Position numbers and translations under genes: made by a program | Part shown: piece after piece, positions 17,539 through 46,411 of the stretch | How positions within the stretch are numbered: the first letter of the stretch is position 1 | Layout: each line of letters starts with the position of its first letter | Source: an uncultured archaeon | Lineage (GTDB): Archaea; Altiarchaeota; Altiarchaeia; JAFGQM01 | DNA length: 64,000 nt | NCBI GenBank assembly: GCA_964619365.1 | Contig: CAZUDQ010000001.1 | Coordinates: 18,929 to 82,928, forward strand | Reading direction: 5' to 3' | The notes under the pieces: model-generated | The model's input: the letters and a program-made list of their open reading frames with translations, nothing else | The model's database searches: none | Told to the model about the DNA's origin: nothing

Positions 17539-20500
17539 TTAGCTTAAAGTTACTCTGACTTGTGCATCGTCGTTATTTGGTACATCAAAGGACACTGGCA
17601 TAAATGTTACTTTATTGACGCCACATACATTATCCCTGCTTATCCCACTTGTGTAAACTGCAGTATCTGAACCTACAATTAGGTCAGTATTACATCTGAC
17701 TGTGAAGTAACCACATGAGCCATAGCATTCATCGTTATAACAAACAGACACTTTTGTATTTTGATATTTGAAGTTAATGTCTTTACAGGCACCCCCCTCG
17801 GTCAGTGTCAATAACGAACTTGTTTCAGGTAAAGTCCCACCTCCGGTCACAGTACCAGAAGTTGATTTTGTCGGCAGACAAAGAGATGTTATGGACGCCT
17901 GTGCTGCAGTAAATGTTGCTACGTCAGTACAACTACTCTTATATGCATCTTGGGAACCAATTAGGTATTTATACTGCTTGCCAGTTTCTAGATATGCTTC
18001 AATCTGAGCATTGTTTATGCAGTTATTACCCGACTGTGTCCACCCTGAAACAACATTCTTACTTATGCATATCGCTGAAGCTCCAGGTACTGCAGTCAAC
18101 GTTAAGCTTCCAACAGATTTACAGTTAAGCTTCTTGCCATCCTGTGATTTTAATGTTATTTGTCCTGGTGCTGCAGTATACTTCATTAAGTTTGTGAAAC
18201 TTGCAGTGCCCATATCTACTGTTTTTGCCGCGGTAGTTGTTCCCCAAAGACTGCTTGTCGTTTCGGTTGTAAGATACTTTGCAGGGGTCTCTGCTCTTAC
18301 ATCTGGACAATTTGGAACTGTTGCAACAAACTTTGCCGACTGACCGTTACTTGCTTTAAACGTGCATTCATATGCTCCGGTAGTGGTTTCTTTGCAAGTT
18401 GCGGCGGCAAGAATATTTCCGCTAACGCCTGCAACTGAAGCAGTGGCGCCAGTTACCGCTTGGATATTTTTGTCTTGTATTTTTGCTGTTACCTTAAAGT
18501 TTGATGAAGCGCTCTCAACGTAACAATCTGATGAGTCGGTCTTGGCTAGTTTCATATCCTTTTCGACTATTGTCTTTCCACTAAGGTCGGACTTTGGAAC
18601 TACCATTTCAGCGTTATAACATATGTTATCAACAATAACACCCACTCTCACTGCAGCATCAACGTCATTTTTGACTTCAAATACTGCCTCACAGTTCTGG
18701 CCGTTTGGAGTTGCCCCGTCTACTTTCTTAACCCCTAGGTTTTGCTGCGCGTAGCGTATTGTTAAGTCTGAACAGGTCACGCCCTTATCCGTTGGGATGA
18801 CAGTTGTTGAGACTTTTACCTTAAGTTTGGTGTATCCTTCTGTAGCAGTTACACCGCATGCACATATAAGGAGGTTATCGGCTGAAAGCCCGTCTGGAAC
18901 GTTTGTTTTGCTCAGACTTCCTGCTTCAAGCTCAGAGTATGTTTTAGCACTGCATGTCAGCTGCTTTTCTGTGCACTTTGCGCGCAGGTAGTAAAGTGCA
19001 TTGTTCTCTGCACTGTATACCATTGGAAGCTGTGCGTTTGTCTTAAACGCATCAGTCGGTATAAAGCAATCTGCTGCAGTAACGACTACAACTTGGTTCT
19101 TGGCTCCTTTCTTTGCATATGCAACAGCGTCCTTTGAAAGTTTGGTCGTCTGGCAGCTACTTGAGGTACAATATTGAGATATTTTAGTCTCAGTCGGAGT
19201 ATTGCATATTACTGTACCACCGGATGTTGTAGTGCATGTTGTTGTTACCTTCCCAAGCACGAAGAGATCTGCATTTGGCATAATGTATTTGCCCTTGTTC
19301 ATGGGGTTCATCGTCTTGGTCACAGAATCACAATACGAAATTGCGCCGTCCTTCTGCACATCCTCAAACTTTGGATAAGCCTGACCTCCAACAAGGTTCT
19401 TTGCAACAGTTCCTGCAAGTGAGCTTGTCCCGTACTTGTCGGCAGTTGTCAAAACATATATTTTGGTGTCATCACCTGGATACTTAAAGACATCTTTTGG
19501 AATGTCCTGGGTTGTTATGACATATGGGGTAAGCGTACCTACAACACTCTTTGCCGAACTTGAAAGGGTGTTTTCGGCTAGTGCAATAGTCTTGTCTGTC
19601 TCTTTAGCGTCAGCAGGATATGCAAGAGCGTCAACCTTTGCAGATGAGCCTTTGGCTCCTGTTGAGGATTTTTTCCATATGTTGAAATAATTGTTAAACG
19701 CCGAATTACCCTTTATATCTGTTGCTGTTGCCCAAAGGAGATATTTACTTGCGGTTTTGCCACCTGGTGCAGTCACTGCATTTGCAGCTATTCCAACAAC
19801 TGGAGTGTAAAGACCGTGTTCATTACCCTTTACTGCATATACTGCTGCGTCCTTATAGACTTTGTATTTATCGGAAAGTCCATAAGTTTTAAGTGTTGCA
19901 TCGTTTATCTCATCGCGTATGTCAACAATCATGCTCTTTCCACTGGTAACAGAAGATTCAAAGAGCTTTGTAAAGCTATCTTTATTGCACGAATCACCCC
20001 AGAAACTCTCTACATTATCACTGCAACAATATGTCGTTCCAGTGTCGGTTCCTTTTGTAACATATACATATGATGCCCCATTGGCCTTGAAATGATCGAT
20101 TATCTGTTTACATGAAGGATCATTTTCTCGTGTAGTCGTACCGGTACCAAACCAGCCACTCCAGAAACCTTCACTCTGACCTTTTATCTTAGTTGTTGTC
20201 GTACTAGTATAGTCTCTTACCCAGACAACATCGCCATTAGTCGCGCCTGAAGCTTTGTCATCGCCCATGCCTAGAAGCTTCTTACAGTTCTCAAGGTTAA
20301 AGCCTGCCCCCCCCATGCTAACTCCGCCGGGGGCAATTGTTGTCCCCATTTGGGGCGTTCCGCCGACTGTCGAGCCGTATGGGCTGCCGTAGCTTGTCCC
20401 ATAAGGTGAGTTTCCGGAATTCGGTACAGAGTATCCATTCTGGTTCATAAGCCAGATACATCCTGCAAGGTTTATTCCGGCTCCGCCGGCATTTGTATCA

Positions 20501-23500
20501 TCATCACATATACAACCAGCTTCGTACCAGCTCTCATCGTCACATCCACAATCTACACTTGCAGAGACTGAAGTCGAACCACTGCGATCACCGCTTACTG
20601 CGTTTACACTTATTGACTGACTCGAGTCATAATCAACCTGGTTTGTGTATGTATTATAATAGTTTGAGCTTGTCTTCTTCTTGTAGAATGCTGACTCTGG
20701 CATTGTTATATAATATCCGCCACGTCCTGAATTATAGCTTGCCGAGACTGACGTTGAAGTGCTTGAGGGGTAAGCTGATACTGTTGCGTCCTTTACAATA
20801 CCGCAGTCATCTGTTACTTTAACCAGGAAACTCACGCTTCCGCCTGAACCGATGTCAACTGATACTGAACTGGGAGTTGCTGAAACACTTAAAGAGCCGC
20901 ATATATCTTTTGAGCACTTGCATTCCTGGGTGCACCCATAGCCTGAAGAGCATCCTGTCGGGTCTGCTGCCGGGTCGCACTGCTCGCCGGAATCTATTTC
21001 CCCATTTCCACAAAGCTTTGTTGCCGTTATTTTAGCATCAGCATCAATTGCCTTACTTAGGCCATTCCACTTTGTTATTACGGTGAATGTGAGTATTCCT
21101 GACTCATAATCTCCATTGTCTTTTGGCGCCATACTTCGTAAGATTGCACCACGGAAACAGTTCTTTGCCTCATCATAAGTTGCTGTGCGTGTTGCAGTTG
21201 TTGCCCAACCGTCCATCTCATCAACTGAGACTGTGACTGAAGCATCTTTTATCTCCTCGCCGTCCTGGTCAGAGACGAATATGCAAAAGCCCGCACTTGT
21301 CTGTTCTGTCGGGTCGAATGTGACTGAATCAATTGTCACCTTAAGAGCTTCAGTGTAAACATCAAGGTCGTATCCCGCCTGACGTGAACACTGTGCGTTC
21401 TCGTCAATCTGGAAAATTCCTGAATAATTGCCGTCTTCATCAAGTTCGACTATGGCTACTACTTCCTGTTCTGGTGAGTAATCAGTCTGCGCGTAGCCAA
21501 GTGAGAACTGCTCGTATGCGCCGTTAAGCCTGAGTGTGAGGTTTGCCTCATCTCCGTTTATCAAATATACTTTTTGCTCGCCTGAGATAACGCCCGTTGT
21601 TATAGATGACTCGCCGCGCGCGCCGTCAACTAATATTCTTAAGGGTATCTTGCCCTTCTCTCCGTTTTGTATGCGGACATTGTCTCCTGAGTCAAGCACT
21701 TCTATTCCAAGTGTGCAAAGTGAGCCAAGGTTGTATATTACAATCTCGCCACAGCTTCCATTTGAAACTTCACTTGCTTCAAACTCGTAGTCATCAAGAG
21801 GTGCGTATAATGTAAGGTCTTCTTTTACCTTAAAGTAATATTCATCAAGCTCTTTGCCATAGAACCTTGCAATCCCGCTTGAGTCAGTCTCTATTGTCTT
21901 TATCGGGGCTGAGAAGTTATCGTTGTAATACATTATAACATCAATATCTGCTGCGGGTTGTGAGCTGTCTGAAAGACGCGCCTGGACACAAATCGGGTAT
22001 GCTTCTGGGAGTGAGACGTCAACTGTCACCTCACCATTTGGTATCATCTCGATTATGTCGCCTTCGGATTCGCCGTCGTATGTGGCATAATCTTCTGCCT
22101 TGACAACTACATAGATATCTCTTTGTACTATCTGGCCGCCGTTATTGACTTCTGCAGGGACATCTGTAAATGGCCAGCAACCGCCGACTCCAGCTCGTGC
22201 AGAGACTATTGCCTGTCCTGTCGTATAATCATATACTGTGATATTTGCCCTGAGTGGGAGTCCGGTTTCTTCTGATGTTACACACACCTTGATATCTCCG
22301 TTATCTATTATTACGGGGGCTGAGCCTGTGTATATCGTACCGTTTGCCATGCTTCCGCCAACGATTGATGCAACGCCTGAAGTCTTTGGGGAACTGCCAA
22401 GGTTCAGTGCTTTGACATAGACCTGGGTTCCGTCTGGAATGTTTTTAAAGGTATAACAGTTTTCCTCTTCAGCGTCATCGTCCCCGGTTTCTGCTGTCCA
22501 GAGAAGCTCGTTGTTGGAATTGTAAAGCTCAAGATCTGCATTGTCAAACGTGTCGCCGTCCTTATAGACACATACTTCGTACTCGCCAGAATTATCATCG
22601 TCTGCGCGGCAGGCAACAATATTCATTATCGCACCCTCTGATGATGCTATTCTTCCTGACTTTGAAAGAAGGTAGTCATCATCGTATGCGACTGCATAAA
22701 CTTCACGCCCGCTTGAAAGCTTTACTTTTGTGTTCCCGCAACTGGGAATTGTAAGCCCTGTTATTGTGCCCATGCATTCTGAGTAATCTTCGTCTATTAC
22801 CATGTCGGTTGCGGCATCAATTATCATGACTTTTATTCCTGTTAGGGGGTCGCCACCACAATCATCAACGTGGGCATATACTGTTACTGTCGAGCTTGCG
22901 GACTGTTCCTGCATAGTGACTGTGAAGCTTGTTACTCCTGAATAGGATATTGTCTTTGCGTTTGCAGGGGACTCATAAGGGGCATATCCTGCTATTTGCA
23001 CGACTGGATAAACGCTTACACCTTCAGGAAGACCTGCAAAGTCCTCACATGCCGAATCAATCGGACGCGCGGTTCCGTAGGTGACACCGTCAATCCCTCT
23101 TAGCATTAGTGTGCCACTATCTAGTGGATAACCATCGTTGTCATAAACGCAGACTTCGACTTTTCCGACAGTCTGGAGTGAGACCTGGTAGATAAGGTCG
23201 CTTTTTGAGACGTCAAGCTTGTTGCCTGCAGTCTTTCCATTGTATTGTGATACTGAAGCTGTGCTGGGATATACTGTCGCATAAACGCTTGTTCCCAAGG
23301 GGACGCCCGATATGCTTACTGTGCCATCGTTGTATGTCGTCTCCGGGCCTCCGATTAAGGTTGATGTGTCCCAGTCAAATAACTGAACGTCTGCGCCTAG
23401 TACTGGCTGATACTCTGAATCAACGACCTTTACCTGAAGGCTTGTTGTAAGCGATGTTTTGGGTATTGTTATTTTCGCTGTGTTCTCACCTTGTGTTATG

Positions 23501-24159
23501 GTTACTTTTTGACCAGCTGGGGGGTATTTTTCCTTACCTATTGAAAGCTGTAAAATCCCTTCTGCACCTGCCGGGATGTCAGAGAAGCTTGCCTTGTTTG
23601 AAAGAACTGATTTTGTCTGTGAATACTTTCCGGGTGAAGTCAATGTCGCATAAGTTCCGCTTGGAAGTTCGCCGCCGCCAGATACTTCAATATCTACACT
23701 AAGGGAACCCACTTCCGGGGCGAGTTCAAGCTTGACTGAGCCATCCTCTGATTCTAAGAGTTTTTGTTCTGATGCTGTGACATAGCCTTCAGAACTAGCA
23801 GAAATTGTTGTTTCAATATCACGCGGGAATTTTATGTTTGCGCGGCCGTTGGCATCAGTTGTATTGCTTACTCTGCCTTCAGGTCCGTTATAATAAACTG
23901 TTGCGTCTTCAATCGGGAAGCCATCTGACTCCACCTGCACAAGAAGCGCACCCATCGAAACTCCGCCTGCTGCGCCAAGTGCCAGAGCAAGAAGAACGAT
24001 TATAGCTACCGCTATGAGGGCAATTAATAGTAATGGGTTTATGTGGTGTTTGTCACAGAAGGTGGCAAGGGGAATACCCTTTGCCTCTAACTTCTCTGCA
24101 GAAGACCACGCTTTCTCGGTCAACCCATCGATAAATCCAGTTTTTCCTCCGCTTGGCAT
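17539..24159 (-). CDS. Giant membrane-anchored surface protein (2206 aa); carboxypeptidase-regulatory/Ig-like repeats, Cys-rich motif, T/K-rich C-terminal half
   Basis: N-terminal amphipathic motif + TM; repeated V.V.D..G.P+..A.V beta-sandwich units; CGNGEIDSGEQCD; many Cys pairs. Confidence 0.85.
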   Translation of the reverse strand: MPSGGKTGFIDGLTEKAWSSAEKLEAKGIPLATFCDKHHINPLLLIALIAVAIIVLLALALGAAGGVSMGALLVQVESDGFPIEDATVYYNGPEGRVSNTTDANGRANIKFPRDIETTISASSEGYVTASEQKLLESEDGSVKLELAPEVGSLSVDIEVSGGGELPSGTYATLTSPGKYSQTKSVLSNKASFSDIPAGAEGILQLSIGKEKYPPAGQKVTITQGENTAKITIPKTSLTTSLQVKVVDSEYQPVLGADVQLFDWDTSTLIGGPETTYNDGTVSISGVPLGTSVYATVYPSTASVSQYNGKTAGNKLDVSKSDLIYQVSLQTVGKVEVCVYDNDGYPLDSGTLMLRGIDGVTYGTARPIDSACEDFAGLPEGVSVYPVVQIAGYAPYESPANAKTISYSGVTSFTVTMQEQSASSTVTVYAHVDDCGGDPLTGIKVMIIDAATDMVIDEDYSECMGTITGLTIPSCGNTKVKLSSGREVYAVAYDDDYLLSKSGRIASSEGAIMNIVACRADDDNSGEYEVCVYKDGDTFDNADLELYNSNNELLWTAETGDDDAEEENCYTFKNIPDGTQVYVKALNLGSSPKTSGVASIVGGSMANGTIYTGSAPVIIDNGDIKVCVTSEETGLPLRANITVYDYTTGQAIVSARAGVGGCWPFTDVPAEVNNGGQIVQRDIYVVVKAEDYATYDGESEGDIIEMIPNGEVTVDVSLPEAYPICVQARLSDSSQPAADIDVIMYYNDNFSAPIKTIETDSSGIARFYGKELDEYYFKVKEDLTLYAPLDDYEFEASEVSNGSCGEIVIYNLGSLCTLGIEVLDSGDNVRIQNGEKGKIPLRILVDGARGESSITTGVISGEQKVYLINGDEANLTLRLNGAYEQFSLGYAQTDYSPEQEVVAIVELDEDGNYSGIFQIDENAQCSRQAGYDLDVYTEALKVTIDSVTFDPTEQTSAGFCIFVSDQDGEEIKDASVTVSVDEMDGWATTATRTATYDEAKNCFRGAILRSMAPKDNGDYESGILTFTVITKWNGLSKAIDADAKITATKLCGNGEIDSGEQCDPAADPTGCSSGYGCTQECKCSKDICGSLSVSATPSSVSVDIGSGGSVSFLVKVTDDCGIVKDATVSAYPSSTSTSVSASYNSGRGGYYITMPESAFYKKKTSSNYYNTYTNQVDYDSSQSISVNAVSGDRSGSTSVSASVDCGCDDESWYEAGCICDDDTNAGGAGINLAGCIWLMNQNGYSVPNSGNSPYGTSYGSPYGSTVGGTPQMGTTIAPGGVSMGGAGFNLENCKKLLGMGDDKASGATNGDVVWVRDYTSTTTTKIKGQSEGFWSGWFGTGTTTRENDPSCKQIIDHFKANGASYVYVTKGTDTGTTYCCSDNVESFWGDSCNKDSFTKLFESSVTSGKSMIVDIRDEINDATLKTYGLSDKYKVYKDAAVYAVKGNEHGLYTPVVGIAANAVTAPGGKTASKYLLWATATDIKGNSAFNNYFNIWKKSSTGAKGSSAKVDALAYPADAKETDKTIALAENTLSSSAKSVVGTLTPYVITTQDIPKDVFKYPGDDTKIYVLTTADKYGTSSLAGTVAKNLVGGQAYPKFEDVQKDGAISYCDSVTKTMNPMNKGKYIMPNADLFVLGKVTTTCTTTSGGTVICNTPTETKISQYCTSSSCQTTKLSKDAVAYAKKGAKNQVVVVTAADCFIPTDAFKTNAQLPMVYSAENNALYYLRAKCTEKQLTCSAKTYSELEAGSLSKTNVPDGLSADNLLICACGVTATEGYTKLKVKVSTTVIPTDKGVTCSDLTIRYAQQNLGVKKVDGATPNGQNCEAVFEVKNDVDAAVRVGVIVDNICYNAEMVVPKSDLSGKTIVEKDMKLAKTDSSDCYVESASSNFKVTAKIQDKNIQAVTGATASVAGVSGNILAAATCKETTTGAYECTFKASNGQSAKFVATVPNCPDVRAETPAKYLTTETTSSLWGTTTAAKTVDMGTASFTNLMKYTAAPGQITLKSQDGKKLNCKSVGSLTLTAVPGASAICISKNVVSGWTQSGNNCINNAQIEAYLETGKQYKYLIGSQDAYKSSCTDVATFTAAQASITSLCLPTKSTSGTVTGGGTLPETSSLLTLTEGGACKDINFKYQNTKVSVCYNDECYGSCGYFTVRCNTDLIVGSDTAVYTSGISRDNVCGVNKVTFMPVSFDVPNNDDAQVRVTLS

Positions 24160-24274
24160 TTTAGATAGTAATAGTTGCTTTAATTAAGCGAGTAAGACAT
24201 AAAAACCCTTAAAAATACCTATTTCAAAATAGAAAAAGAAGCTTGATGGGTGTAATTACCCTAAAGTCTGCGCC

Positions 24275-25966
24275 TTACAAGAACTTCTCGACAAGGCGAG
24301 CGTAGGCCGGCCTTGATATTAGGATTCCGATAAGAACACCAACTATTGCAGTTACCGCAAAGCCACGAAGGTCGCTTATACTATAAAGCGGCACCATGGC
24401 ACAGATTGTTGTTAAGGCTGAGGTAAATATTATAAAGAAGGCACGGTCTATTGACTGCTTTAGGTCCCATATTTTCTTATCCTTGCGCTCCACACCACCA
24501 TTGCCACGCAGAGCTTCATCAGTTATTATTATCTGGTGGTCAACACCGGTTCCAATAGCTGCGATTATTCCTGCTATTGCGGCGAGGTCAAGCTCCCAGC
24601 TTGTGATTGAGGCAAATCCTAAAATCATTAGAACCTCAGAAAATCCAGTTACAAGAATAAGTGCCGAAATTTTCGGCTTCCTGTATCTTAATGAAACAAT
24701 ACATGCGACAAAGCCTATTGCAACAAGAGCGATTAATCCTGCGTACTTAAGGAACTCTTGACCGAGTTCAGGGAGATTCGGACGCTCGCTTACGATATCT
24801 GCTTTTACAGGCAGGCTTCCTGATTTCAGCCAAATCTTAAAGTTAAGTACTGTTTCACGCGCCGCCGCCTCGGTTGCCGAGCCCCCTTCAAAGACTGAAG
24901 AGTATACTGGGCCTCCTGATGTTAAGCCTTCCCCAATCTGAAGAGTGCTTTTTATTCCAATAATATTGTCTACCCATGACTCGTCATTATCCGGCCTATC
25001 TTTGGTCTTGGCATAATTTATGTGCCACTCTGACTCGCCTTTTATTACTTCTGTTAAGGTGATATTAAGCTTTTCTACTTCTGCTAAGAGCTCTGCTGGA
25101 AGTTCGTTTGAGTTTATCGGGATTATTATTTCTTTTATCCCGCCTCCGCGAACCAAGGAATCAATCTCGGCAACTGCAGATGATAAATCAAATGTCTTGG
25201 TAGTTTCAGTTTCGTTTGCAGTCTCGTTTAGAGTGCCGTTTATTGCTATGCCAAGCTCATCAAGTATGCTTAGGTTATCTTCAGGAACAGAAATTTCGAC
25301 TTTTTCTGTTGAATAACAGATTACGGGAACATTTGCCCGCTCCTCGATAAAAGAAAGCGTTGTGTAACCTGTGTCCTCGACGTGGTTTCTAAACTCCTGG
25401 GAAGCAAGCTCTGTGCAGTCCTCTTCAGTTAGAAGTATGAGTGATTCACTTGGGCGGTCAAGGAATATGTCTGTCATGTGCCCTGCCATGCCTTCCATGA
25501 CATTTCCTGAACGTTTAGGGGCCTCGCCTGTTGCCTTGACATATACTTTCCAGCTTGTACCCTGTATAAATGAGCCGCCCTGAGATGCTGCGTCGAGTTG
25601 AATCTCATCGCCTGATGCTGCAAGTTCCCCTTCAACCATCTGCTCAAAAAGCGCCTGCTGGTTTATTATGTCTCTTAGTTGCTCAAGTTCTGTTTCCTCT
25701 GTCGTTGAGACTTTGATTGTAATATATTTATTTCCGGCCTCCTTTAGGACTTGGGTTGATTTAAGACCCATTTTGTTTAACCTGTCCTTTAAGATTGAAA
25801 TCACTTCGTCGGCATATTCCCCACCACCTGTTTCAATCTCCATCCTAAGGATAGTTCCTCCAGTAAAATCTATTCCAAAAGTGAGACCATTAAGTAGAAT
25901 TGTAATTATCGATAACGCGACAATGATACCCATAAGGATAACCCGCCAGTCTTGACTTAGTTTCAT
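24275..25966 (-). CDS. secD: Protein translocase subunit SecD
   Basis: GIDFTGGT, LKSGSLPV, LDLAAIAGIIAAIGTGVD, LRGFA. Confidence 0.93.
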   Translation of the reverse strand: MKLSQDWRVILMGIIVALSIITILLNGLTFGIDFTGGTILRMEIETGGGEYADEVISILKDRLNKMGLKSTQVLKEAGNKYITIKVSTTEETELEQLRDIINQQALFEQMVEGELAASGDEIQLDAASQGGSFIQGTSWKVYVKATGEAPKRSGNVMEGMAGHMTDIFLDRPSESLILLTEEDCTELASQEFRNHVEDTGYTTLSFIEERANVPVICYSTEKVEISVPEDNLSILDELGIAINGTLNETANETETTKTFDLSSAVAEIDSLVRGGGIKEIIIPINSNELPAELLAEVEKLNITLTEVIKGESEWHINYAKTKDRPDNDESWVDNIIGIKSTLQIGEGLTSGGPVYSSVFEGGSATEAAARETVLNFKIWLKSGSLPVKADIVSERPNLPELGQEFLKYAGLIALVAIGFVACIVSLRYRKPKISALILVTGFSEVLMILGFASITSWELDLAAIAGIIAAIGTGVDHQIIITDEALRGNGGVERKDKKIWDLKQSIDRAFFIIFTSALTTICAMVPLYSISDLRGFAVTAIVGVLIGILISRPAYARLVEKFL

Positions 25967-26871: not shown

Positions 26872-26971
26872 TTAATGCCACCTGCCGCAGATGCGACTGC
26901 GTAGTTTTGACTTTTAGCATATATAAATGTTAAGTCGTTTTAGATGATTTTTGTGTGCGTTAAATCTTAAT

Positions 26972-29238: not shown

Positions 29239-29304
29239 CGTAGTTAAAATAACAATTAATAATTAGGAGTCGTCCAATAAAAACGTGAGAAAACACTTAA
29301 ATAT

Positions 29305-32300: not shown

Positions 32301-33387
32301 TTGTTACAGTTTGTCCAGCAGGAACCTGAATCGGTCCTACTCTTGGACCTGGCGCACATCCAGAAGGTGCGTCGGTAACACCCACATAATATTGTTTTGA
32401 TGGGTCTGCATTAAACACTCCGCAACGAGTATTAACAGTACCTGACATAAGCTCGCAATCACTTATCCTATGCGTGGATTTTAACTCCCCGTCAATATCA
32501 TATAACCCTATCTCACCACCTGGTGTAATTCCCTCTTCAAGGCCGCTAACACAAGCCTGTATCTTTGTATTTGACTCGTCAACTACTATTGGCTGTGTTG
32601 CCACATTCATTGATATCGAGATTGTCTCAGTACTTCCATCAGTAACATAAATGGCGTTTTCCTCATTTGTATAGTCGGCATAGCCTGAGAGTTGGACTGT
32701 CAAATAATAATATTCGTTTGCAGGAAGGCTTGAGAAGGTCGCGCTTCCGGCGACATACTTGCTGTTTTTGACTGTGCCCCCATTATCGTATACTCTTACT
32801 GTTGCCGAAAGCGGCTCGCCTGTTGCCGAATCCTTAAGTGTTACTGAAATACTGCCCGTAACTTCTTGCTTCTTGCAATAGTCTTCTGGCAACGAAACTG
32901 AAAGGGTTGACTTGTCCGCTGTTTTGATAGTGCTTGACTTGACTGGAGATGATTCACTGTCATCTGAAGAGACTTGCGCATAAACTTCTTCTGCTGAAAC
33001 GTCTTCGAATGTTGCAAACCTTGAAGGGGCGTTTTTCGTGCCAAAACTTGTTCCATCAGCACTCTTCAATGTTATGTCTAAGGACGTACAGGAATAGCCA
33101 CCCTGTACATAAACCCTTATGTCTTTTTCAGTGGTCTTTGTTGTAGGTTCACGACAGGCACCACAGTCCTCCGGGCAAGAAGAACAATTCTCGGGCTCGA
33201 CACAGAGCGCATCGCCACACTCCGTTGCAGGAGCGCTCGAGCCACCCATCATAAGAAGTGCTGCGATGATGGCGATAACTGCTACAATCGCTGCTGGAAA
33301 AACTATCGGGGGAATTCCTTTCTCGTCAAAGAACTCTCCAAGATGCACTTTATCGAGTAAGTCCCACAGGGTGTCGTCAAGGGTCAA
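29305..33387 (-). CDS. Giant surface protein (1360 aa) with Ig-like repeats, internal duplication, dockerin-like and Cys/Asp metal-binding motifs
   Basis: TTG start; shared N-terminal motif; CGDALC..ENCSSCPEDCG; DLNGNG...DVNGDGEININD; EVCLNSTDDDCNGQTD. Confidence 0.85.
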   Translation of the reverse strand: MTLDDTLWDLLDKVHLGEFFDEKGIPPIVFPAAIVAVIAIIAALLMMGGSSAPATECGDALCVEPENCSSCPEDCGACREPTTKTTEKDIRVYVQGGYSCTSLDITLKSADGTSFGTKNAPSRFATFEDVSAEEVYAQVSSDDSESSPVKSSTIKTADKSTLSVSLPEDYCKKQEVTGSISVTLKDSATGEPLSATVRVYDNGGTVKNSKYVAGSATFSSLPANEYYYLTVQLSGYADYTNEENAIYVTDGSTETISISMNVATQPIVVDESNTKIQACVSGLEEGITPGGEIGLYDIDGELKSTHRISDCELMSGTVNTRCGVFNADPSKQYYVGVTDAPSGCAPGPRVGPIQVPAGQTVTKVAHVECNLVAEVRARVLVDNTSVTDDVTIELFLDQNDSKIGNMYYDSEGYTDYLDAPANRKLYIKVTDVPSGYMTAKKMFELDPDDNETITITLQVPPPPPPQLIIQGARLPQAAVEEGGDVLLYASKVYTNESTTALNPSNGLSVSCAGSWASSTWHTATYNSSLSLPWVCNMTAPASIGEKTVVIRATKTDHITDSKDFKILVYNESSSGAGSFLVDRVSMTPFSPEILGFNITYFNGSNYVPVDSVYESSILVYYEDSQLRSLIANSSLTKESDGTFKVEFPVPFAGNYSYSIRFSIYVNGSYKTFISADPYEYIEILSGGGSTNIICELEETIAKSSPDPNSPNTFNVSTGLIFAGARLPNQDIAVNVNAGSRSETYIVQTDESGLVNASIPTFSSECRYSVNCESIQDDSIVSNPLYLYVVNAEAPGINYMDCPISGGRIQCGSIEDLRNCYAYLLEYPESAAAMLPIVNNCASQVLSGSCSTSETISCIPETRFAQTSDSFTINSSITLEGTALPNENIIINISSGVANQAYTKNTGATGLFSGEIPTFSNECKYTLSCQSADNSSIYSNSYLYVVNPSLASDPDSCPASPSSCDSEDDLRNCYSLYLQEDEDAYSYNELLSCADNVFPDFCAPSGDYSNCRYGVTFRIKSYCYFTDVGASCSTYCAAHPTESRCLNRLFENTTDYLTYFIDGTPSGQTKTLSNATDFILPTIAEDATTQVRYQFADVTIAGGNEVCMGADCDPDCTNSNTCNAAPSFSLAISQSDGTVTAVGYCPLACSGVEKDLNGNGIGEEDSDKKIMASIIDNWQIFGRPPYSSLPYCVDVNGDGEININDYLCLIDPMSGYCEESCVASSQMEVCLNSTDDDCNGQTDRVTYYNGAYLYNSTAKELINLCECNKYTPCEMLFKSGIGSYTLCSKIGANEYSLKTASQIAAACTPLEDASGVKLYCAATDLSTIKSYVCDCSGSYCTWTGFGAGAGTYPDPPWFPTP

Positions 33388-33430
33388 TTTAAATGTAGAA
33401 GAATTATCGGGAGATGCTTAAAAAGTTTCT

Positions 33431-34822
33431 TTATGCGCTTTTGTTTCCAATAATCTTCATATCCATCCATAAAAGCCTTCCTTCCAGCCATGTCGTGATA
33501 TTGGAGATTTGCTCGTCAAAAGACATGTTTACTCCTGGGTACCATCTTAAATAGTCGCGCGCCGCAGGTTCTGGTAAGCCCTTTGTCAAATTTGTTATTG
33601 TCGCGTTGATGTTTGATTCTGAAAACGAATCCTGCCTTAAATTTTTCCAGAGGCCAGAGGCCAATTCGCGGTTGTCGTCTTTAAAGAGCTCATCAAACGT
33701 TCCAAAGTGCTCAGCGCCCCATCCTTCTGTTGATACGGGGGGTGCATTAAATGCGCGGTCAAAATCCCATTCCGGACCAAAGTGGAGAGTCCCTTGCGAT
33801 TCTGGGATATACATATATGTACTTGCCCACATGATGTCGGCATTGCGCGCAAGCTCGTTTAAAAGATAATGCTTGGCAAAGCTTTCCATATCAACAAAAT
33901 CCGAAAGATAGTCCTTATCAAACTTTAGGGCAAGAAGCATCTTTTTGAAGAAAGATTCAATCCAATCTTTTTGTTCTTGGTTTAGGTCCTCTTGTTTTGG
34001 ATATTCAAAAAGTATATGGCCATCGTAGCATCCCCAGCTGATATTAAAATATTCTTCTCCGGGCTCGATGTGGTCTAATTTTACCAGCCATCCCCCGCCA
34101 ATGTCAGGATAAGTTGTGGCATTCTTCTGCATCTTTTCAATATCCACTCTGTTTTTATCCCGCTTGATTTTTTCAGCAAACGTATAGACACCCATATAAT
34201 CCTCCGGGGAAAGCTCCGAATCATTTGAGACAAATACTTCGACAAGTTTTGTTCTCATCGCAAGAAGACCTATGTCACCTGCAAGAGCGTAGGCAAGCGC
34301 GTGGCGGATATGGCTTTTGTCATAATCATATGTCGCGACAAGCACCCAGTCAGACTCTTTTGGCATTCCAAAGGGTTCTATGTTCTTATCCTCGCCTTCG
34401 GCGTCCCATGCTTCTATATTATAGGATTTCTTCGGCCAGGAGAGTGCGGTGTTTCCCCTTAGTTTTATTCCGGCAAGTGTAGACAAATCCGGAGTATCCT
34501 CAAGGGAGGACGTCTCGTTTTTAAGATAGTAAAAATCTGCTTGGGACCAGAGTCTTTTAGAGTCGTTATAGGTTTTATTCTCAAGCTTATGGATTACAAT
34601 AATCGGTATTGTAGATGAGAAGTTCAGTTTTGAAGGAATTATTGGTTTTGGGTTGTTTTGAACAACTTGGATATTCTTAAATTCGCTTATATCCTGAGAA
34701 GAAATGCTTGTATTTTGAACTGCTTGCTCTGTTTTTGGAAAAACAAGAAAAATAATTAGAATTAGGATACATATTGTTAAGAAAAGGGGGAGGATTATCC
34801 TTGAATCAAAACTTTTTGGCAT
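33431..34822 (-). CDS. cotH: CotH-family protein kinase, membrane-anchored, catalytic domain probably extracellular
   Basis: GIKLRGNT...KKSY.IE, WVL.A.YD.D, YMGVY, N.D, GPEWDFDRAF; N-terminal TM; NxS/T sequons. Confidence 0.9.
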   Translation of the reverse strand: MPKSFDSRIILPLFLTICILILIIFLVFPKTEQAVQNTSISSQDISEFKNIQVVQNNPKPIIPSKLNFSSTIPIIVIHKLENKTYNDSKRLWSQADFYYLKNETSSLEDTPDLSTLAGIKLRGNTALSWPKKSYNIEAWDAEGEDKNIEPFGMPKESDWVLVATYDYDKSHIRHALAYALAGDIGLLAMRTKLVEVFVSNDSELSPEDYMGVYTFAEKIKRDKNRVDIEKMQKNATTYPDIGGGWLVKLDHIEPGEEYFNISWGCYDGHILFEYPKQEDLNQEQKDWIESFFKKMLLALKFDKDYLSDFVDMESFAKHYLLNELARNADIMWASTYMYIPESQGTLHFGPEWDFDRAFNAPPVSTEGWGAEHFGTFDELFKDDNRELASGLWKNLRQDSFSESNINATITNLTKGLPEPAARDYLRWYPGVNMSFDEQISNITTWLEGRLLWMDMKIIGNKSA

Positions 34823-34848
34823 GGTTTACTTTTGATTAGATTTAATCC

Positions 34849-37800
34849 CTAAAAATCTATTTCTACTGGCGAATATATTCTGGCAAACTCTTCTATGTTG
34901 GGAACGTAATTTTCTATCATATAACTATAAAGCTCTTGTCCGGATGCAATGACCTCTATTAGGTCAAGATCTGTACCCATGAATTCAGAGCCTAACTCAA
35001 ATTTGTAATATCCTTTTGGCCAAAAGACGTATGAAAGTTCTTCTCCCAAATTAGTTTTCATATTTGAGTCGAAAAAAGCCTTCACCCACTCGCCTTGTAA
35101 TATCTCTACATATTTATTGTCATCTTTGGAGAGTTCAGTATAAACCTCTTTTCCTGAACTGTCAACAGCGTTTAGCATGGGCAATTCAATAACTGAAGAA
35201 GGCTCTATATCTGAGAAATCGGCTGCGATATAATCTATGCTAAACCCACCTATTGGCGAGGTTAGTCTCACTCTAAGATTACTTTCTTTTGTTGGGATGG
35301 TAACTGATATTTTCCCGGCATCTCCTGCAAAAGCATAGCCAAAATAATGTTTTCCTGCTAAAATCCATTTGCCGTCTTTTTCATATTCTATCCAGACTTT
35401 TCCATTCCGGTCAATAAATGAATCAAGAGCATTCAATATAGGTAAGGTTAGTATCCCATAAGGTTTTTCTTTTAGAGTTTCTTCTACCCCCCACCACATG
35501 AAGACAAGCATGTCCGTTACAGTGCCTTTAAGTATTAATTTTGCTTCTTTTGCTCCATTTGGGACTTCAAAGTCCACATAGACTGGATCATATATGTTGT
35601 CAGGGTTTTTGGGGGGTGAGAGCTTAAGATCGTACACATACATTTTTCCCTCAGGTTCTGCGACATAATCCAAACAGTCTACGCCGTATTTTGTGATACA
35701 TGACTTTGGTTCCTGTGGAGAAATTATAACAGTATTAGAGCCGTCAATGTCAGGTACAATTTCGCTTCCTTTTGGATGAGAAACTGCGAAAAGGCGCATA
35801 GTGTTTATGTTTGTTGTATCAGGAAGTGCCTGTGCTATTGCAACTGTAAGTATGCCATTTGTTTCCTTTAACGAAGGGAGTCTTGAATAAGAATATATTT
35901 CCAACGAAGGCGACAATGACAATGGGAAGGCTACTGCCTCTAAAATATAGTTTGTTCCATCATAAGAGTATACATATGGACATTCGTCGTCCCCTCCTTC
36001 CGATGGACAGGGGGCATCACCTCCTTGACAATCATTATCCCAGCCATCCTCACATTTTTCACCTGGCAGAGTATTTTCAGGATAAAATTCATACCACTGG
36101 CTTTCTGAACATTTCCAGGTGTTTCCATTACATGAGAACCATTGGCACCCACGGTCTTTTGTGCAGGCTGGCGGGAATTCGGATTTTTTGAACCATTGGT
36201 ACCCACCTTCATCCCAGCTCGCGTCACGACAGATCTCAAAATCGTCGTCTTTTAAATCTTCGGCATAAACGCCCTTTATGTTTCTTAACATTTCACACGG
36301 CGTAGTCTCGGTGCAAGCACATGATGGATCTTCATCATCTAAAAGTCCGTCGCAATTGTTGTCATATCCATCATAGCATACTTCAAGCGTACTGTATGCC
36401 CCTTCCGGTAAGTTTTCATCACAATCAAGGCAGACAAGCCAATCTTCAGAATTTCCCCAAAGATAACTGTTTAGGCATACAAGATCCTGCTCATCTATTA
36501 TACCATCTGAGTTGACGTCCGCACATTCTGCAATCGGTAAATCTGGTGTCAGATATCCATATACAATAAGCGCTATTACTGCATAATCAAGTTCGTCTAT
36601 CTTACCGTCATTATTTATGTCCCCCTTATTCCCACACTGGAGCCTAAAGACGCCCATACATTCAGCCGGGATATTTTCAGAAAGTGATATTTCGCCCCTT
36701 AAGCCATCATCGAAATCCAGTGATTCAAACTTCTTCAGACAGTCAAGATCAATCTGACCTATCGTCCCGTCCCAGTTAAAGTCGATAAGGGCAAGAACCT
36801 CTGTTGTTGGTGTAACTCCACTACGTACGGCAAGAACAGCTTTTTCCATGAGTTCAATATCAATTTCGTCTATTACTTTGTCACGATTAAAGTCGCCAGG
36901 TATCGGGGAATCAAGTTTTATGTCAAAACAAAAACCGCCTTTGAGTTGGCTTGAACAGGTATCTTCCTCCGTCCCCGCATCACCAATCCATTTGCCTGAT
37001 ATTATATTTGCAAGGCACGTAAGGTCGTCGTTATCGATATCATTGTCGTTATCAATGTCTCCGCATGCAAGGTAATTTTGAAGTTCGTCTTCTGAAAGTC
37101 TTGATATTACTTCTGACATTATTGTTTTATCGTTATATGCGCCTGAAGAATCAAGATAACAGTTATTGTTCCAGTCACCCTTCGATGCCAATTCTGAAAG
37201 GCAATGGGCGATTGAGACTTCACCTGCAAGACCCCATCCATCTTCAAAGCAGTTTATTGTCTCGCGCTCTGAGTGCATAAGGTCGTCTTTATGGGATTTC
37301 ACACATTCTCTGACGTCAGAGGGCGAAGCGCAATTTGAAATCTCGCACTTACTTGACCTCTCAAAATCCTCATTTGACACGTATACCTTCTCTTCTCCGA
37401 CTTTTCTCCCGCCGACTTTGAATACTATCGCATATATCCCCTCTTCATCTGACGCGTCAAATGAGGCAGAATATGCGCGCGTGGAATTATCCCAAAACAT
37501 CATCTGACTCTCGCCATTAAATTCGGCAAAGAGGTTTGTTAGGTCTTCGACGTACTCCGACCCCATTTTCAGTTTAGCTGTGACTGAGAAAAGTTCACCG
37601 GGGTCAGGGAACCTCTGGCTGACTGTTGAATCGATTGTGAGTGTCTCGCGTGTTGGCATAGAGCGTATGCCAGCTACTGTAAAGGTGCCTGAATAATATT
37701 TTCCATCCACCACTTTTCCAAGGTCAATTACAAGTGAATGGTCTCCTGTGAAGGGTGAATTAAGGTCAACATAAAAGAAGCCTTCGTCTTCCCCAAGGGG

Positions 37801-39603
37801 TAATATTCCAAGGTCTATCTCACCTTCATCGTATGTTGCAATGACGTTTGATGTGAAATCACCGGTCAGCGCGCTTCCATTAAAGGTTATTCCAAGAGGT
37901 ATTCTTATTGGCGCTTCTGCGTCAGTTAAGGTAAGCGGCACGACTGTAAAGAGTCCATCTCCAGCTTCATATACACTTATATTCTTTTGGATTACTCCGA
38001 TGCAATTATCTACTGTTGCTGATATTACAAGAAGATGTTTTCCGCTTATCGGAGTTGGTGAGACGCATACAACAGAAGTTCCTTCTCTCGAGCAATTTCC
38101 TCCGCTAAATCCAACAGCATAACTTGCAGTCTGCGTCACGTCTTCCCCGTTGCATGTCGCCTTGGTAAACCCTGCGCGGAAGTCCTCATCATTTATTGCG
38201 ATATTTGGATAGTACACTCCGCTAAAAATTATTTCAGAGGGGATTGAGTCAAGTCTTATTGTAACAGTCTTGTTGTAATACGGTTTGACTGACAGGTTTG
38301 AAGTCGTCGCGTCCATATAATCCTCAACGCCAGTTACTATGAAATAGAAGTCTTTTGTAGAATCTACCTCCACGTATTCTGTGAAATTGCCTTCGGTCTT
38401 AAGGGAATCATACTCTCCATTGCCACCTATGCGCTCACCGTCTTCATAAAATAGGTTTATTGTGGCATCTTCTGTCAAAATCTCACTGTCTGCTCCGATT
38501 ATTTTTGCTCGTACTGCAGATATAAAATTGCATGTAACCTCTAAATTCAGGGTATTAGAATCAATAGGTATTGTTGCCTGTGATGCGACGCATCCATCTT
38601 CAATGCCCACTGCTTTTATGTAACCAGTCTGCCCAGTTGGAAGCTCTACTTCAACGCAACCTGACGAATCTGTGTCATATTGACCAAGGCTTATTCCTGC
38701 AAGTGAATATATCTCTATTTTGGAAACTGCAGAATCCGCACATATAGTTAAAAGACCTTCGTCATCCTGTTGTCTAGGATTAAGTGAGATTTGTTTTGAT
38801 ACTGTCGTTCCTGATATCAGGCTAAATGGGTTTTTGCTACCATCATAATCCTGGTACCCTTGGCTTTCGGCCATTATGGCATAGGTTCCTGCTTCGAGTG
38901 AGAAGGTGACTTCGTTGGTGACGTCTTTTGAATCCATCACCGCATAAGCGCTTCCAGTCGGTTTTATTATAGATACCTTGCCCGGGATTATGACACCTGT
39001 TGATGATTCAAGAAGAACAACACGTATGTAGCCCGTGCCAAGTCCCATGTCTTTTTCACTTTCTTTCTCGAAGAAATCTGAGGATAAAAGAATATTTAAA
39101 ATCGTTTCATCTTCATCTATTGTAAAGAAATCAGAGTTTCTGGTTTTTCCGTTCGCAGAGTTTCGGACAACTGCCCTCACTGCATCTGCTTTTGTGGGAA
39201 TTGAAAATGTAAATTCTGCTTTCTGCCCAGATTTTTGCTGTAAAGTCGAGCCTGATGCATCCTGAAGACTAACTGTGACTGAGGATTCTATTGGGGCTCC
39301 CGAAAGAAGGACTATAAACTTTTTTGAAGGGACTGTAATCTCAGTATCACGACACTCGCCACAGTCCTCTGGACATGATGAACATGTTTCGTTCTCAGAG
39401 CAAAGACCGTCACCACACTCATCAACTGGGGCTACACTTGGTCCAGACATCAGGAACAATGCGAGGATTGCAACTACAATGATTAGAGCTATTGGAAAAA
39501 CTAATGGTGGGATGTGATGCTTATCAAAAAACGCGCCTAGTTTGACGGCATCTAAGACGGGCCATAAAGAATCATTTAACTTGTCTAGTATTCCTGGTGA
39601 CAT
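34849..39603 (-). CDS. Giant surface protein (1584 aa) with three tandem dockerin-like domains, MopE-like Cys/Asp motifs and an extra C-terminal domain
   Basis: Shared N-terminal motif; GDINNDGKIDELD...ADVNSDGIIDEQD and two further pairs; EVCYDGYDNNCDG; CPYVYSYDG. Confidence 0.87.
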   Translation of the reverse strand: MSPGILDKLNDSLWPVLDAVKLGAFFDKHHIPPLVFPIALIIVVAILALFLMSGPSVAPVDECGDGLCSENETCSSCPEDCGECRDTEITVPSKKFIVLLSGAPIESSVTVSLQDASGSTLQQKSGQKAEFTFSIPTKADAVRAVVRNSANGKTRNSDFFTIDEDETILNILLSSDFFEKESEKDMGLGTGYIRVVLLESSTGVIIPGKVSIIKPTGSAYAVMDSKDVTNEVTFSLEAGTYAIMAESQGYQDYDGSKNPFSLISGTTVSKQISLNPRQQDDEGLLTICADSAVSKIEIYSLAGISLGQYDTDSSGCVEVELPTGQTGYIKAVGIEDGCVASQATIPIDSNTLNLEVTCNFISAVRAKIIGADSEILTEDATINLFYEDGERIGGNGEYDSLKTEGNFTEYVEVDSTKDFYFIVTGVEDYMDATTSNLSVKPYYNKTVTIRLDSIPSEIIFSGVYYPNIAINDEDFRAGFTKATCNGEDVTQTASYAVGFSGGNCSREGTSVVCVSPTPISGKHLLVISATVDNCIGVIQKNISVYEAGDGLFTVVPLTLTDAEAPIRIPLGITFNGSALTGDFTSNVIATYDEGEIDLGILPLGEDEGFFYVDLNSPFTGDHSLVIDLGKVVDGKYYSGTFTVAGIRSMPTRETLTIDSTVSQRFPDPGELFSVTAKLKMGSEYVEDLTNLFAEFNGESQMMFWDNSTRAYSASFDASDEEGIYAIVFKVGGRKVGEEKVYVSNEDFERSSKCEISNCASPSDVRECVKSHKDDLMHSERETINCFEDGWGLAGEVSIAHCLSELASKGDWNNNCYLDSSGAYNDKTIMSEVISRLSEDELQNYLACGDIDNDNDIDNDDLTCLANIISGKWIGDAGTEEDTCSSQLKGGFCFDIKLDSPIPGDFNRDKVIDEIDIELMEKAVLAVRSGVTPTTEVLALIDFNWDGTIGQIDLDCLKKFESLDFDDGLRGEISLSENIPAECMGVFRLQCGNKGDINNDGKIDELDYAVIALIVYGYLTPDLPIAECADVNSDGIIDEQDLVCLNSYLWGNSEDWLVCLDCDENLPEGAYSTLEVCYDGYDNNCDGLLDDEDPSCACTETTPCEMLRNIKGVYAEDLKDDDFEICRDASWDEGGYQWFKKSEFPPACTKDRGCQWFSCNGNTWKCSESQWYEFYPENTLPGEKCEDGWDNDCQGGDAPCPSEGGDDECPYVYSYDGTNYILEAVAFPLSLSPSLEIYSYSRLPSLKETNGILTVAIAQALPDTTNINTMRLFAVSHPKGSEIVPDIDGSNTVIISPQEPKSCITKYGVDCLDYVAEPEGKMYVYDLKLSPPKNPDNIYDPVYVDFEVPNGAKEAKLILKGTVTDMLVFMWWGVEETLKEKPYGILTLPILNALDSFIDRNGKVWIEYEKDGKWILAGKHYFGYAFAGDAGKISVTIPTKESNLRVRLTSPIGGFSIDYIAADFSDIEPSSVIELPMLNAVDSSGKEVYTELSKDDNKYVEILQGEWVKAFFDSNMKTNLGEELSYVFWPKGYYKFELGSEFMGTDLDLIEVIASGQELYSYMIENYVPNIEEFARIYSPVEIDF

Positions 39604-39634
39604 TTCGGCTCGTAAGTATTTAGGGTGAGCCGAA
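39604..39634. promoter_or_regulatory. Inverted repeat TTCGGCTC-N15-GAGCCGAA between TATA-like box and start codon
   Basis: 8-bp arms abut the ATG of the 1584-aa gene. Confidence 0.4.
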
Positions 39635-39667
39635 TAAAAACAATTTCTTTTAATCAGAAAAATTAGG

Positions 39668-39728
39668 TGGCGGGGGGAAAGAATCAGATAACCAACTGGA
39701 GGAAAGGCATCCGCTTACCACCCCCGCC
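39668..39728 (-). ncRNA. Candidate ~60-nt structured small RNA with GC clamp
   Basis: GGCGGGGG...CCCCCGCC terminal stem in AT-rich intergenic DNA; TTTTTAT TATA-like element ~25 nt upstream on the minus strand. Confidence 0.35.
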
Positions 39729-39764
39729 TTGGCTTATCTATAAAGTAAAAGGATAAAAAGATTA

Positions 39765-40832
39765 TTATATTATTCCGGCACCTATAAGGAGTGATATTAT
39801 AAAGCTTGAATAAAGTGCCAAAAGCAAAATTCCTTCCGGCCAGTTAATTTTCCAGCGCCATCGTATGAAAACAAGAATAAGCGATGTTGTCAAAAGCAGT
39901 ACTGGTAAGGAATAGTTGAGCTCCCACTGTGTGACGGCTAAGGGGGCAACCATTGCTGAGAGTCCTCCGACAAGAGTTATGTTAAATATACTTGAGCCAA
40001 TGACGTTGCCAAGTATCATATCACCAAGACCGCGTTTAATTGAAGAGAATGATACCATAAGCTCTGGAAGGGAGGTTCCAATCGCAATTATCGTTGCCCC
40101 AATTATTGCTTCAGAAATGCCAAGTTTTGTTGCCATTTCAACAGCCTCACCGACAAGGAAATCGGCGCTTATGAGTATCAATACGGCAGCAATTGCCACA
40201 ATTATCAAGCTTCTTGTTATCCCTGCCTCATATTTTTTAGCGAGGTGAGCCTTACTTTTATCCGACTCTTTTTCAAATCCTTCTTCTACAAAGTCTGCTG
40301 TACCTTTTTCTTTAGCTACTTTTTGCTCCGGCTTTTTAACATGATATCTAAAGTGCAGCAATTTCGAGGCACCAATGCCCCGTATTCTTTTCCTGAATTC
40401 AAGAGCATAGAGTAAATAGACTATTGCCACAATAAATAATACCAACCCTTCTATCCTTCCTATGACCCCTCCCATTGCAAATATGTAAAAAACAATAACT
40501 GAAAGAAGAAGCATTAGGCAATCGCGATAAAACATCCTTTTTGTGCTCTTTATCGTCATAAGGATTGTGACAATTCCAAGATTTAGGGCAAGGTTTGACA
40601 TATCAGCGCCCACAATATTCCCAACAGCAAGCTCTGATGCCCCCGAGAAAGACGCCATTACAGCCGATGCCAGTTCTGGGAGAGATGTCCCTATCGCAAC
40701 CACGGTAAGGCCTATTATAAATTCTGATATCCCAAAGTACTCGGCTATCTTTGAAACCTCTTCGACTAGGTAATCACTTGCTTTTATAAGTACTGCAAGT
40801 GAGCCAAGCAATAGTAAGACACTGATTAACAT
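39765..40832 (-). CDS. Ca2+/Na+ antiporter (CaCA, YrbG/NCX_Mj type)
   Basis: Two alpha repeats GTSLPE and GNIVG/GNVIGS. Start reassigned to ATG 40832. Confidence 0.93.
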   Translation of the reverse strand: MLISVLLLLGSLAVLIKASDYLVEEVSKIAEYFGISEFIIGLTVVAIGTSLPELASAVMASFSGASELAVGNIVGADMSNLALNLGIVTILMTIKSTKRMFYRDCLMLLLSVIVFYIFAMGGVIGRIEGLVLFIVAIVYLLYALEFRKRIRGIGASKLLHFRYHVKKPEQKVAKEKGTADFVEEGFEKESDKSKAHLAKKYEAGITRSLIIVAIAAVLILISADFLVGEAVEMATKLGISEAIIGATIIAIGTSLPELMVSFSSIKRGLGDMILGNVIGSSIFNITLVGGLSAMVAPLAVTQWELNYSLPVLLLTTSLILVFIRWRWKINWPEGILLLALYSSFIISLLIGAGII

Positions 40833-43806: not shown

Positions 43807-43814
43807 TGTCTTAT

Positions 43815-46409: not shown

Positions 46410-46411
46410 TT

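Follow-up and report, generated by a model that had tools for sequence, protein, structure and literature searches.

The closest described counterpart of the locus analyzed here is a 42 kb region of Candidatus Forterrea multitransposorum (Diapherotrites) that encodes five membrane-anchored proteins of more than 1,800 amino acids (aa), for which a role in cell-cell interaction was suggested (available text of PMC5905446). Many membrane and extracellular protein families of DPANN archaea are unannotated, according to the accessible part of PMC8204110, and cryo-tomography reports on DPANN attachment structures call their molecular details unclear in the portions available (PMC11420986, PMC11329633, PMC11104419). 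Non-cellulosomal archaeal dockerins and cohesins have been reviewed (PMC9012536, in the sections available), and multi-dockerins and cellulosomal CotH proteins have been covered (PMC12484212, likewise in part). Here we analyze a 64,000-nucleotide stretch of the genome of an uncultured archaeon of the Altiarchaeota ('the window'; contig CAZUDQ010000001.1, positions 18,929 to 82,928), in which positions 17,539 to 40,832 encode four giant proteins, a 206 aa pilin-like protein, SecF, SecD, a CotH-family kinase and a Na+/Ca2+ exchanger. A sequence-only reading had proposed that these nine genes specify one undescribed, calcium-dependent surface scaffold. We find that six of the genes form a core that is kept in one Altiarchaeota family wherever contigs show it, and that the nine genes are not one system. 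From the sequence comparisons below we conclude that the cluster is a family-conserved variant within a known but uncharacterized DPANN giant-protein kind. A full-text literature search, which left supplements and most subscription papers outside its scope, found no description of this locus or of DPANN dockerin proteins.

All nine open reading frames (ORFs) are on the minus strand, in the order that had been read from the sequence: exchanger, giant D (1584 aa), CotH, giant C (1360 aa), giant B (549 aa), pilin-like protein, secF, secD and giant A (2206 aa). The core comprises C (29305..33387, minus strand, as for all coordinates of the block given below), B (27589..29238), the pilin-like gene (26972..27592), secF (25963..26871) and secD (24275..25966), both identified by Pfam/NCBIfam matches, and A (17539..24159). 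The B gene and the pilin-like gene overlap by 4 nt, as do secF and secD. We compared the genome of the window (G000; 1.21 Mb, 85% complete) with seven other genomes of the same family (G001 to G007; completeness across the family 63-87%), counting gene order only at places where contigs show both sides. The pilin-like gene, present in all seven relatives, is followed by secF in 7/7; B is followed by the pilin-like gene in 6/6; secD is followed by A in 4/4; and C adjoins B in 5/6, the exception being G003, in which eight ORFs are inserted. Where G003 splits the cluster, B and the pilin-like gene remain together. A single contig carries the six-gene order in G001 (where the contig ends within A), G004 and G006, and in G002 the order is divided between two; it is maintained across four genera despite rearranged flanks. 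Every relative has one ortholog of C. Full-length A, B and pilin-like proteins were found in none of 33 sampled genomes of the class outside the family, and the place of secD in the core holds in its own family only. The expectation that the neighborhood would be conserved in relatives was thus borne out for the central block with secDF and the pilin-like gene, and not for CotH and the exchanger. D (34849..39603) behaves differently from the core: upstream of C, 5/6 relatives have a D-type gene or part of one, D belongs to an expanded, mobile paralog family with several scattered copies per genome, and in the tree the window's D stands nearest to another copy of the same genome that is unlinked to the cluster (46% identity). 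The D-type gene directly upstream of C in G004 and G006 appears as two ORFs split in the dockerin region, which may reflect a frameshift or an assembly error (L023:6080-10108, L025:1-2200).

The four giants have a common N-terminal two-helix motif followed by one hydrophobic helix, which is the only hydrophobic segment of each. In A, a transmembrane (TM) helix at about residues 37-76 precedes CarboxypepD_reg/CnaB-like repeats. In B, the anchor and TM helix are followed by a Cys-rich knot and about five small beta-sandwich repeats of CnaB/TIE-like type, with no dockerin. In C, anchor, TM helix and Cys knot precede immunoglobulin (Ig)-like repeats, a single dockerin-like loop (about 29761-29811) and a Cys-rich end. 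In D, the same N-terminal elements precede Ig repeats, dockerin-fold Ca modules, a MopE-like Cys motif and a jelly-roll tip. B, C and D mutually align (BLASTP E 1e-21 to 1e-53); A has no match to any of them at BLASTP E 1e-4, and its common ground with them is mainly the anchor and the repeat type. The proposal that all four share an N-terminal motif and Ig-like repeats therefore stands for the motif, and for B, C and D as aligning proteins, whereas A joins them mainly by anchor and repeat type. A search for further repeats returned nothing beyond the shared Cys-knot sequence and chance matches. Three orthologs of A are 32-51% identical to it over the first ~1400 aa and variable beyond (0-23%).

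A profile built from nine A-type proteins retrieved dozens of proteins of ~2500 aa that align from residue 1. Among ten whose lineage was looked up, four were labeled, as Diapherotrites, Iainarchaeum and Micrarchaeota, and further matches bore Diapherotrites labels. The A-family profile aligned with Iainarchaeota/Micrarchaeota giants from position 1 (hhalign probability 100, E 2.5e-47), the B repeats aligned with the wider-family profile (probability 99.3), and A was, of the four giants, the nearest to the Iainarchaeota/Micrarchaeota proteins. Within the phylum, anchor-containing matches came from the window's own family alone, among the matches listed (at most ten candidates per genome scored, and 91 weaker matches beyond the list). 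A quick tree, rooted at the midpoint, was made from residues 1-330 of 38 selected proteins. It grouped A and its paralog with giants from outside the family, and united B, C, D and E, a fifth paralog, in one family-specific clade (99 in the Shimodaira-Hasegawa-like approximate likelihood-ratio test, SH-aLRT). On these alignments we conclude that the four giants are members of a wider DPANN family (LEDKYY-type; Iainarchaeota, Micrarchaeota) defined by the N-terminal anchor and CnaB-like stalks. The label 'undescribed' falls away for them at the level of DPANN, since large anchored proteins that may be of this kind had already been noted in a Diapherotrite. As far as the available text of the Forterrea report allows, the likeness lies in clustered giant anchored proteins in a DPANN archaeon, and Diapherotrites- and Iainarchaeum-labeled proteins have the anchor and repeats of A; beyond that description, the window cluster has a B/C/D clade particular to its family, dockerin modules, a tip resembling a carbohydrate-binding module (CBM), and secDF. 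Gram-positive CnaB-stalk adhesins (Cna B, TIE, PitA, SpaC) and methanogen adhesin-like proteins likewise have tandem prealbumin/CnaB-like repeats and variable tips, but the window giants use an N-terminal membrane anchor instead of the C-terminal sortase signal of the Gram-positive proteins. Elsewhere in G000 (L060:5902-14537, contig C11), a second A-type giant of 1490 aa is followed by a secreted protein of ~960 aa, a pair kept in G001, G002, G004 and G006; and about ten very large proteins (up to 4275 aa) with a different N-terminal tag, resembling GLAIG-D-YEYF-TPPES, are encoded on contigs C1, C2, C5, C9, C11, C12, C15 and C16 of G000.

Gene neighborhoods of the wider family were read from 79 metagenome loci (71 after merging near-identical ones), with taxonomy mostly unread and flanks of at most 10 kb. 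Giants often stand in tandem at these loci. A KGF-type pilin-like gene lies directly upstream of a giant at 23 of the 62 loci with at least 1.5 kb of upstream sequence, a count that is partly circular, the upstream-pilin profile having been made from 16 of the counted genes. Exosortase genes occur at 5/79 loci and T2SSE ATPase genes at 2/79; SecD, SecF, CotH, exchanger and dockerin occur at 0/79. The window locus has the tandem array with a pilin-like gene upstream, but secF and secD intervene and the pilin homology is weak. The secF-secD pair is the only one in G000, so that the idea of export genes dedicated to the cluster is not sustained. In genomes of other families, secDF lies near ATP synthase genes in 6/9 (loci L032, L159-L166). 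ATP synthase subunit A was found in 0/8 genomes of the window's family, at their 63-87% completeness, and no subunit matched in G000. By this comparison the family may have lost its ATP synthase operon, leaving secDF beside the A giant; secDF would then be fixed between the pilin-like gene and A perhaps because the operon, its usual neighbor, was lost.

These observations bear on whether the cluster is a unit at all. If the giants arose in place by tandem duplication and otherwise act independently, with secDF and the pilin-like gene mere neighbors by chance, then one would expect what the tree gives, that is, B, C, D and E as one family-specific clade with scattered D copies, as well as the absence of secDF from all 79 giant loci outside the family and the TATA-like elements in the intergenic gaps. 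Chance alone accounts poorly for an order held across four genera with rearranged flanks, for the overlap of B with the pilin-like gene and the persistence of that pair where G003 splits the cluster, and for pilin-like genes preceding giants in other phyla too. We consider clustering by duplication and chance unlikely, without dismissing it.

The predicted folds agree with anchored, stalked surface proteins. Models were made of B (predicted local distance difference test, pLDDT, 73) and of D residues 520-1584 (pLDDT 78). In the B model, two short helices and a TM helix come before a Cys-rich linker and a row of about five small beta-sandwiches, with TIE, Cna-B, PitA and SpaC stalks as best structural matches of the repeats. 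The D model shows a pair of Ig domains, Ca modules of helical structure and, toward the C-terminus, a jelly roll of galactose-binding type (35203..35745; residues ~1287-1467), which matches CBM35/CBM32-type domains with Z 8-9.7 and a root-mean-square deviation (rmsd) of 3-4 A. The modeled beta-sandwiches of both proteins resemble CnaB/Ig stalks. The earlier description of the giants as anchored, Ca-binding surface proteins with Ig/CnaB repeats is thus supported by the anchor, the repeats and the predicted folds. Elsewhere in G000, a pilin-headed protein of 699 aa (L070:9092-11191; C1:117091-119190) carries the Cys-rich and jelly-roll C-terminal half of D (35% identity over 550 aa), which suggests that tips are shuffled between pilin-headed and anchor-headed proteins.

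The dockerin region of D (36460..36900) contains two PF00404 domains above the cut-off (E 3.4e-18), and a third, half-degenerate dockerin pair lies just upstream of them in the protein. Residues 991-1052 superimpose on the type I dockerin 2ccl_B over 62 residues (Z 10.5, rmsd 1.6 A), and the best PDB sequence match of D is the tandem double-dockerin 8x39. The dockerin-like loop of C is below threshold (15.2 bits against a cut-off of 22.9) and is retained in 5/6 orthologs. Of the two giants that had been credited with dockerin-like Ca loops, D is accordingly solid and C weak. Across 18 homologous rows, the loops retain their Ca-ligand positions, the residues at positions 10/11 vary and are in many cases acidic, and each second loop has Cys at position 15 in all rows covering that position. 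Compared with type I dockerin-cohesin systems (C. thermocellum, A. fulgidus, scaffoldins of anaerobic methanotrophic archaea, ANME), the window shares duplicated Ca loops and the dockerin fold, arranged in tandem as in 8x39; it differs in that no cohesin or scaffoldin was found in G000 and in that the giants have no catalytic domains, an invariant Cys, internal tandem modules and a membrane anchor. Searches of G000 (85% complete) with PF00963, with the cohesin proteins of G003 as BLAST/phmmer queries and with a profile made from two G003 cohesin sequences (best E 0.25) found no cohesin, and among the top-ranked matches in fold searches of the B and D models the one exception was a cohesin-FN3 construct at rank 31. 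A dockerin-cohesin scaffold within this organism finds no counterpart in these searches, an outcome that the sequence-only reading had named as counting against it, although a divergent or unassembled partner may have escaped them. The only cohesin pair found in the family is in G003 (L068:3-2097). Its first member joins cohesin and PKD domains to a dockerin-like tail, and the cohesin-like protein encoded next carries a C-terminal TM helix; the pair is without a homolog in G000.

Dockerins without cohesins could in principle engage partners on another cell. Dockerins occur in 8/8 family genomes and a cohesin in 1/8; the D paralogs are expanded and variable at recognition positions; and, by the accessible parts of the respective sources, other anaerobic archaea display cohesin scaffoldins (PMC9012536) and the tandem double-dockerin that best matches D binds cohesins across species (PMC12484212). 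Docking of the family's dockerins onto cohesins of a host or partner cell would unite these observations. The modules of D are, however, internal and tandem, not terminal, and the invariant Cys at position 15 suggests that the helix bearing it takes part in intramolecular disulfides. Clostridial type I dockerins have Ser/Thr at positions 10-11 and Lys/Arg at positions 17-18. D does not match this recognition pattern: its positions 10/11 are E-I, Q-I, E-L, E-Q and N-D, that is, mostly acidic or hydrophobic. We judge cross-species docking improbable. An elaboration, in which this reduced and apparently ATP-synthase-less family has turned the DPANN locus of anchored giants and pilin into a SecDF-coupled attachment organelle, with orphan dockerins that recognize host cohesins and with CotH as a strain-level modifier of the surface in contact, strikes us as having only a small chance of being right; if true, it would mean cross-species dockerin-cohesin docking for host recognition in archaea.

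The CotH-family kinase gene (33431..34822; PF08757 E 1.5e-36; N-terminal TM helix) occupies a variable slot, with gaps of 26 nt to D and 43 nt to C. Contigs from a public run from which the window may derive span both junctions, and a second run spans the junction with the 1360 aa gene; no alternative joint bypassing CotH was seen in four DNA runs of patchy coverage. CotH occurs in 2/61 genomes of the phylum. The other is G005, in which the gene is unlinked to giants and has housekeeping neighbors (recA/radB-like, PfpI-like and AAA-ATPase-like by ORF reading). None of the six relatives that show the slot has CotH in it: G001 and G002 have UbiA-domain genes at this position, G004, G006 and G007 have fragments resembling D, and in G003 the slot is empty. 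When genes that adjoin the slot or stand within a D array are counted as well, three relatives encode UbiA-domain membrane proteins here (L027:11647-12306, L028:4700-7414, L052:11234-12500), and a terpene-cyclase-like gene is also in the slot of G002. The kinase has no fused dockerin, and its motifs look intact (RG..KKSY, EKIKRD, NAD329, WD353FD); a profile search aligned D329 and D353 to the N-x-D and W-D-x-D motifs found in 5JD9 (a single-sequence PDB search gave no match), and by their spacing they probably correspond to D228 and D251 of the B. subtilis protein. Acquisition from bacteria is plausible because the nearest database matches, at 26-34% identity, mostly carry the tag of the bacterial type IX secretion system (T9SS). 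In a quick tree the CotH proteins of G000 and G005 grouped together (99) within bacterial-type rows and no donor emerged, and there was no compositional sign of recent transfer (GC content at third codon positions 0.42, against a genome mean of 0.40 with standard deviation 0.04). In the Bacillus cotB-cotG-cotH module, too, a CotH kinase with conserved motifs stands beside surface structural genes, but the window's CotH is membrane-anchored and not conserved at its locus, and its neighbors have no repeats rich in Ser, Lys and Arg (SKR): the giants reach at most 13 S/K/R in 30 residues. Being anchored and intact-looking, CotH could phosphorylate its neighbors in this one organism. From its distribution we conclude that CotH is a passenger gene, outside the conserved unit, and not a part of the system as had been supposed.

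The exchanger gene (39765..40832; PF01699 E 2e-59, TIGR00367) has homologs in 4/5 family genomes searched. At six loci it stands beside DUF389/eRF1, AMP phosphorylase, trkA or unrelated genes, and at none (0/6) beside a giant. Between the exchanger and D, a GC-rich hairpin is followed by a T-run (39666..39729; z -2.6 for the 167-nt region), a possible terminator separating the two genes. We conclude from these neighborhoods that the exchanger belongs with the adjoining DUF389/AMP-phosphorylase block, not with the surface cluster, which removes the Ca-homeostasis gene once assigned to it. Beyond that side of the cluster, window positions 42301-47293 hold genes for AMP phosphorylase, RuBisCO and an IF-2B-family (ribose-1,5-bisphosphate isomerase-like) protein together, a nucleotide-salvage set typical of DPANN.

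According to the hypothesis that all nine genes make a single, integrated, Ca-dependent and CotH-phosphorylated dockerin-cohesin scaffold with its own export and Ca-homeostasis genes, their shared orientation, the short gaps on both sides of CotH, the TM anchor and intact-looking motifs of the kinase, and the model match of the D dockerin fold would all be meaningful. Bacillus cotH adjoins the genes of its substrates (PMC7821199, available text), CotH-like proteins occur in cellulosomes (PMC12484212, in the part available), and some neighbors of the exchanger in relatives (eRF1, a 251 aa gene, trkAH) adjoin D-type genes in other family genomes, so that a loose old linkage is possible. The hypothesis requires a kinase that is kept with the giants, a cohesin, an exchanger that travels with a giant and, by analogy with Bacillus, SKR-rich substrates; we find instead a kinase in two genomes of the phylum, with nearest matches mostly of bacterial type and unlinked in one of the two, whose slot elsewhere holds other genes or none, no cohesin in G000 by Pfam or by the G003-cohesin profile, no exchanger beside a giant, and giants without SKR-rich repeats. 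We regard the integrated scaffold as very improbable. CotH and the exchanger are probably next to the cluster through insertion or rearrangement, and the 'system' of dockerin, kinase and exchanger is mostly a coincidence of this genome.

The pilin-likeness of the 206 aa protein rests on KGF followed by a hydrophobic N-terminal helix, conserved in 6/7 rows having an N-terminus; the protein also has four conserved Cys. It matches no Pfam/NCBIfam family, PF04021 included, and its structural neighbors in the Atlas include pseudopilins, from a poor model (pLDDT 0.37). A predicted complex between B and the 206 aa protein scored 0.00 with the partner fold uncertain, and is evidence neither way. The protein has two longer paralogs in G000. 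Within the window, a lone 633 aa protein (51645-53546) is paralogous to it over the first ~200 residues (E 5e-14). On contig C1, a trio comprises a 937 aa pilin-like paralog, an exosortase-family gene and a divergent T2SSE ATPase (L073:853-6658; C1:228352-234157), and the same trio genes flank anchored giants in L101, L103, L111, L114, L115 and L133. The available text of an account of archaeal type IV pili (Makarova et al. 2016, PMC4858521) permits a comparison: the 206 aa protein has a class-III-like N-terminus, and G000 encodes six T2SSE ATPases, TadC genes and a prepilin peptidase, but all of these are elsewhere, and the window locus, in contrast to type IV pilus loci, has no assembly ATPase or TadC. 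The portion of that paper's main text available to us mentions none of secD, secF, dockerin and cohesin.

We lean, by a modest degree, toward reading the locus as one Altiarchaeota family's version of a DPANN adhesin or attachment locus, made up of giant anchored adhesins and a pilin-like protein. Each giant would probably be held by an uncleaved N-terminal anchor, a two-helix cap and then a TM helix that points outward (N-in/C-out), from which a predicted stalk of CnaB/Ig-like repeats would project and end in a variable tip. The predicted dockerin-fold modules of D would most likely be rigid spacers stabilized by Ca and disulfides, and its predicted jelly roll a lectin-like tip; the likely task would be attachment to a host cell or to surface glycans. 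The 206 aa protein would contribute a minor pilin-like subunit to a type IV filament machine whose genes lie elsewhere, and SecDF would be a housekeeping pair that probably helps to export these ectodomains of 0.5-2.2 thousand aa like any Sec substrate. Several points weigh against this adhesin reading. Stalks of CnaB/Ig type are widespread, as are jelly rolls, and the jelly-roll matches, at Z 8-9.7, are middling; the family genomes are just 63-87% complete; TATA-like elements precede C, secF and A, which suggests several transcripts instead of a single operon; the 206 aa protein aligns with the Iainarchaeota upstream pilins weakly and at the N-terminus only (hhalign probability 37%, E 3.6e-4, 75 columns); and the Iainarchaeota upstream-pilin profile matched no gene of G000.

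The same rigid Ig stalks, Ca loops and many disulfides would also suit structural envelope struts or an accessory coat, that is, spacers spanning an S-layer and not adhesins. The Ig pair of D has B. anthracis Sap domains 4-5 as its top match in Foldseek (E 9e-6, low TM-score), and C carries 22 N-glycosylation sequons. None of the four giants has an S-layer Pfam match, a separate S-layer-like gene (PF05124) exists in G000, the tips are variable and lectin-like, and copy number and domain content differ among genomes. A strut function seems to us improbable.

The adhesin reading, like its alternatives, concerns an uncultured organism, for which direct tests are limited; the modular tips (dockerin-fold, CBM-like, Cys-rich) lend themselves to separate expression and assay. 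The passenger status of CotH and the exchanger takes away the most striking part of the claim first made for this DNA. What the locus supplies is a set of concrete candidates for DPANN attachment structures, and it extends the anchor family to one reduced Altiarchaeota family.

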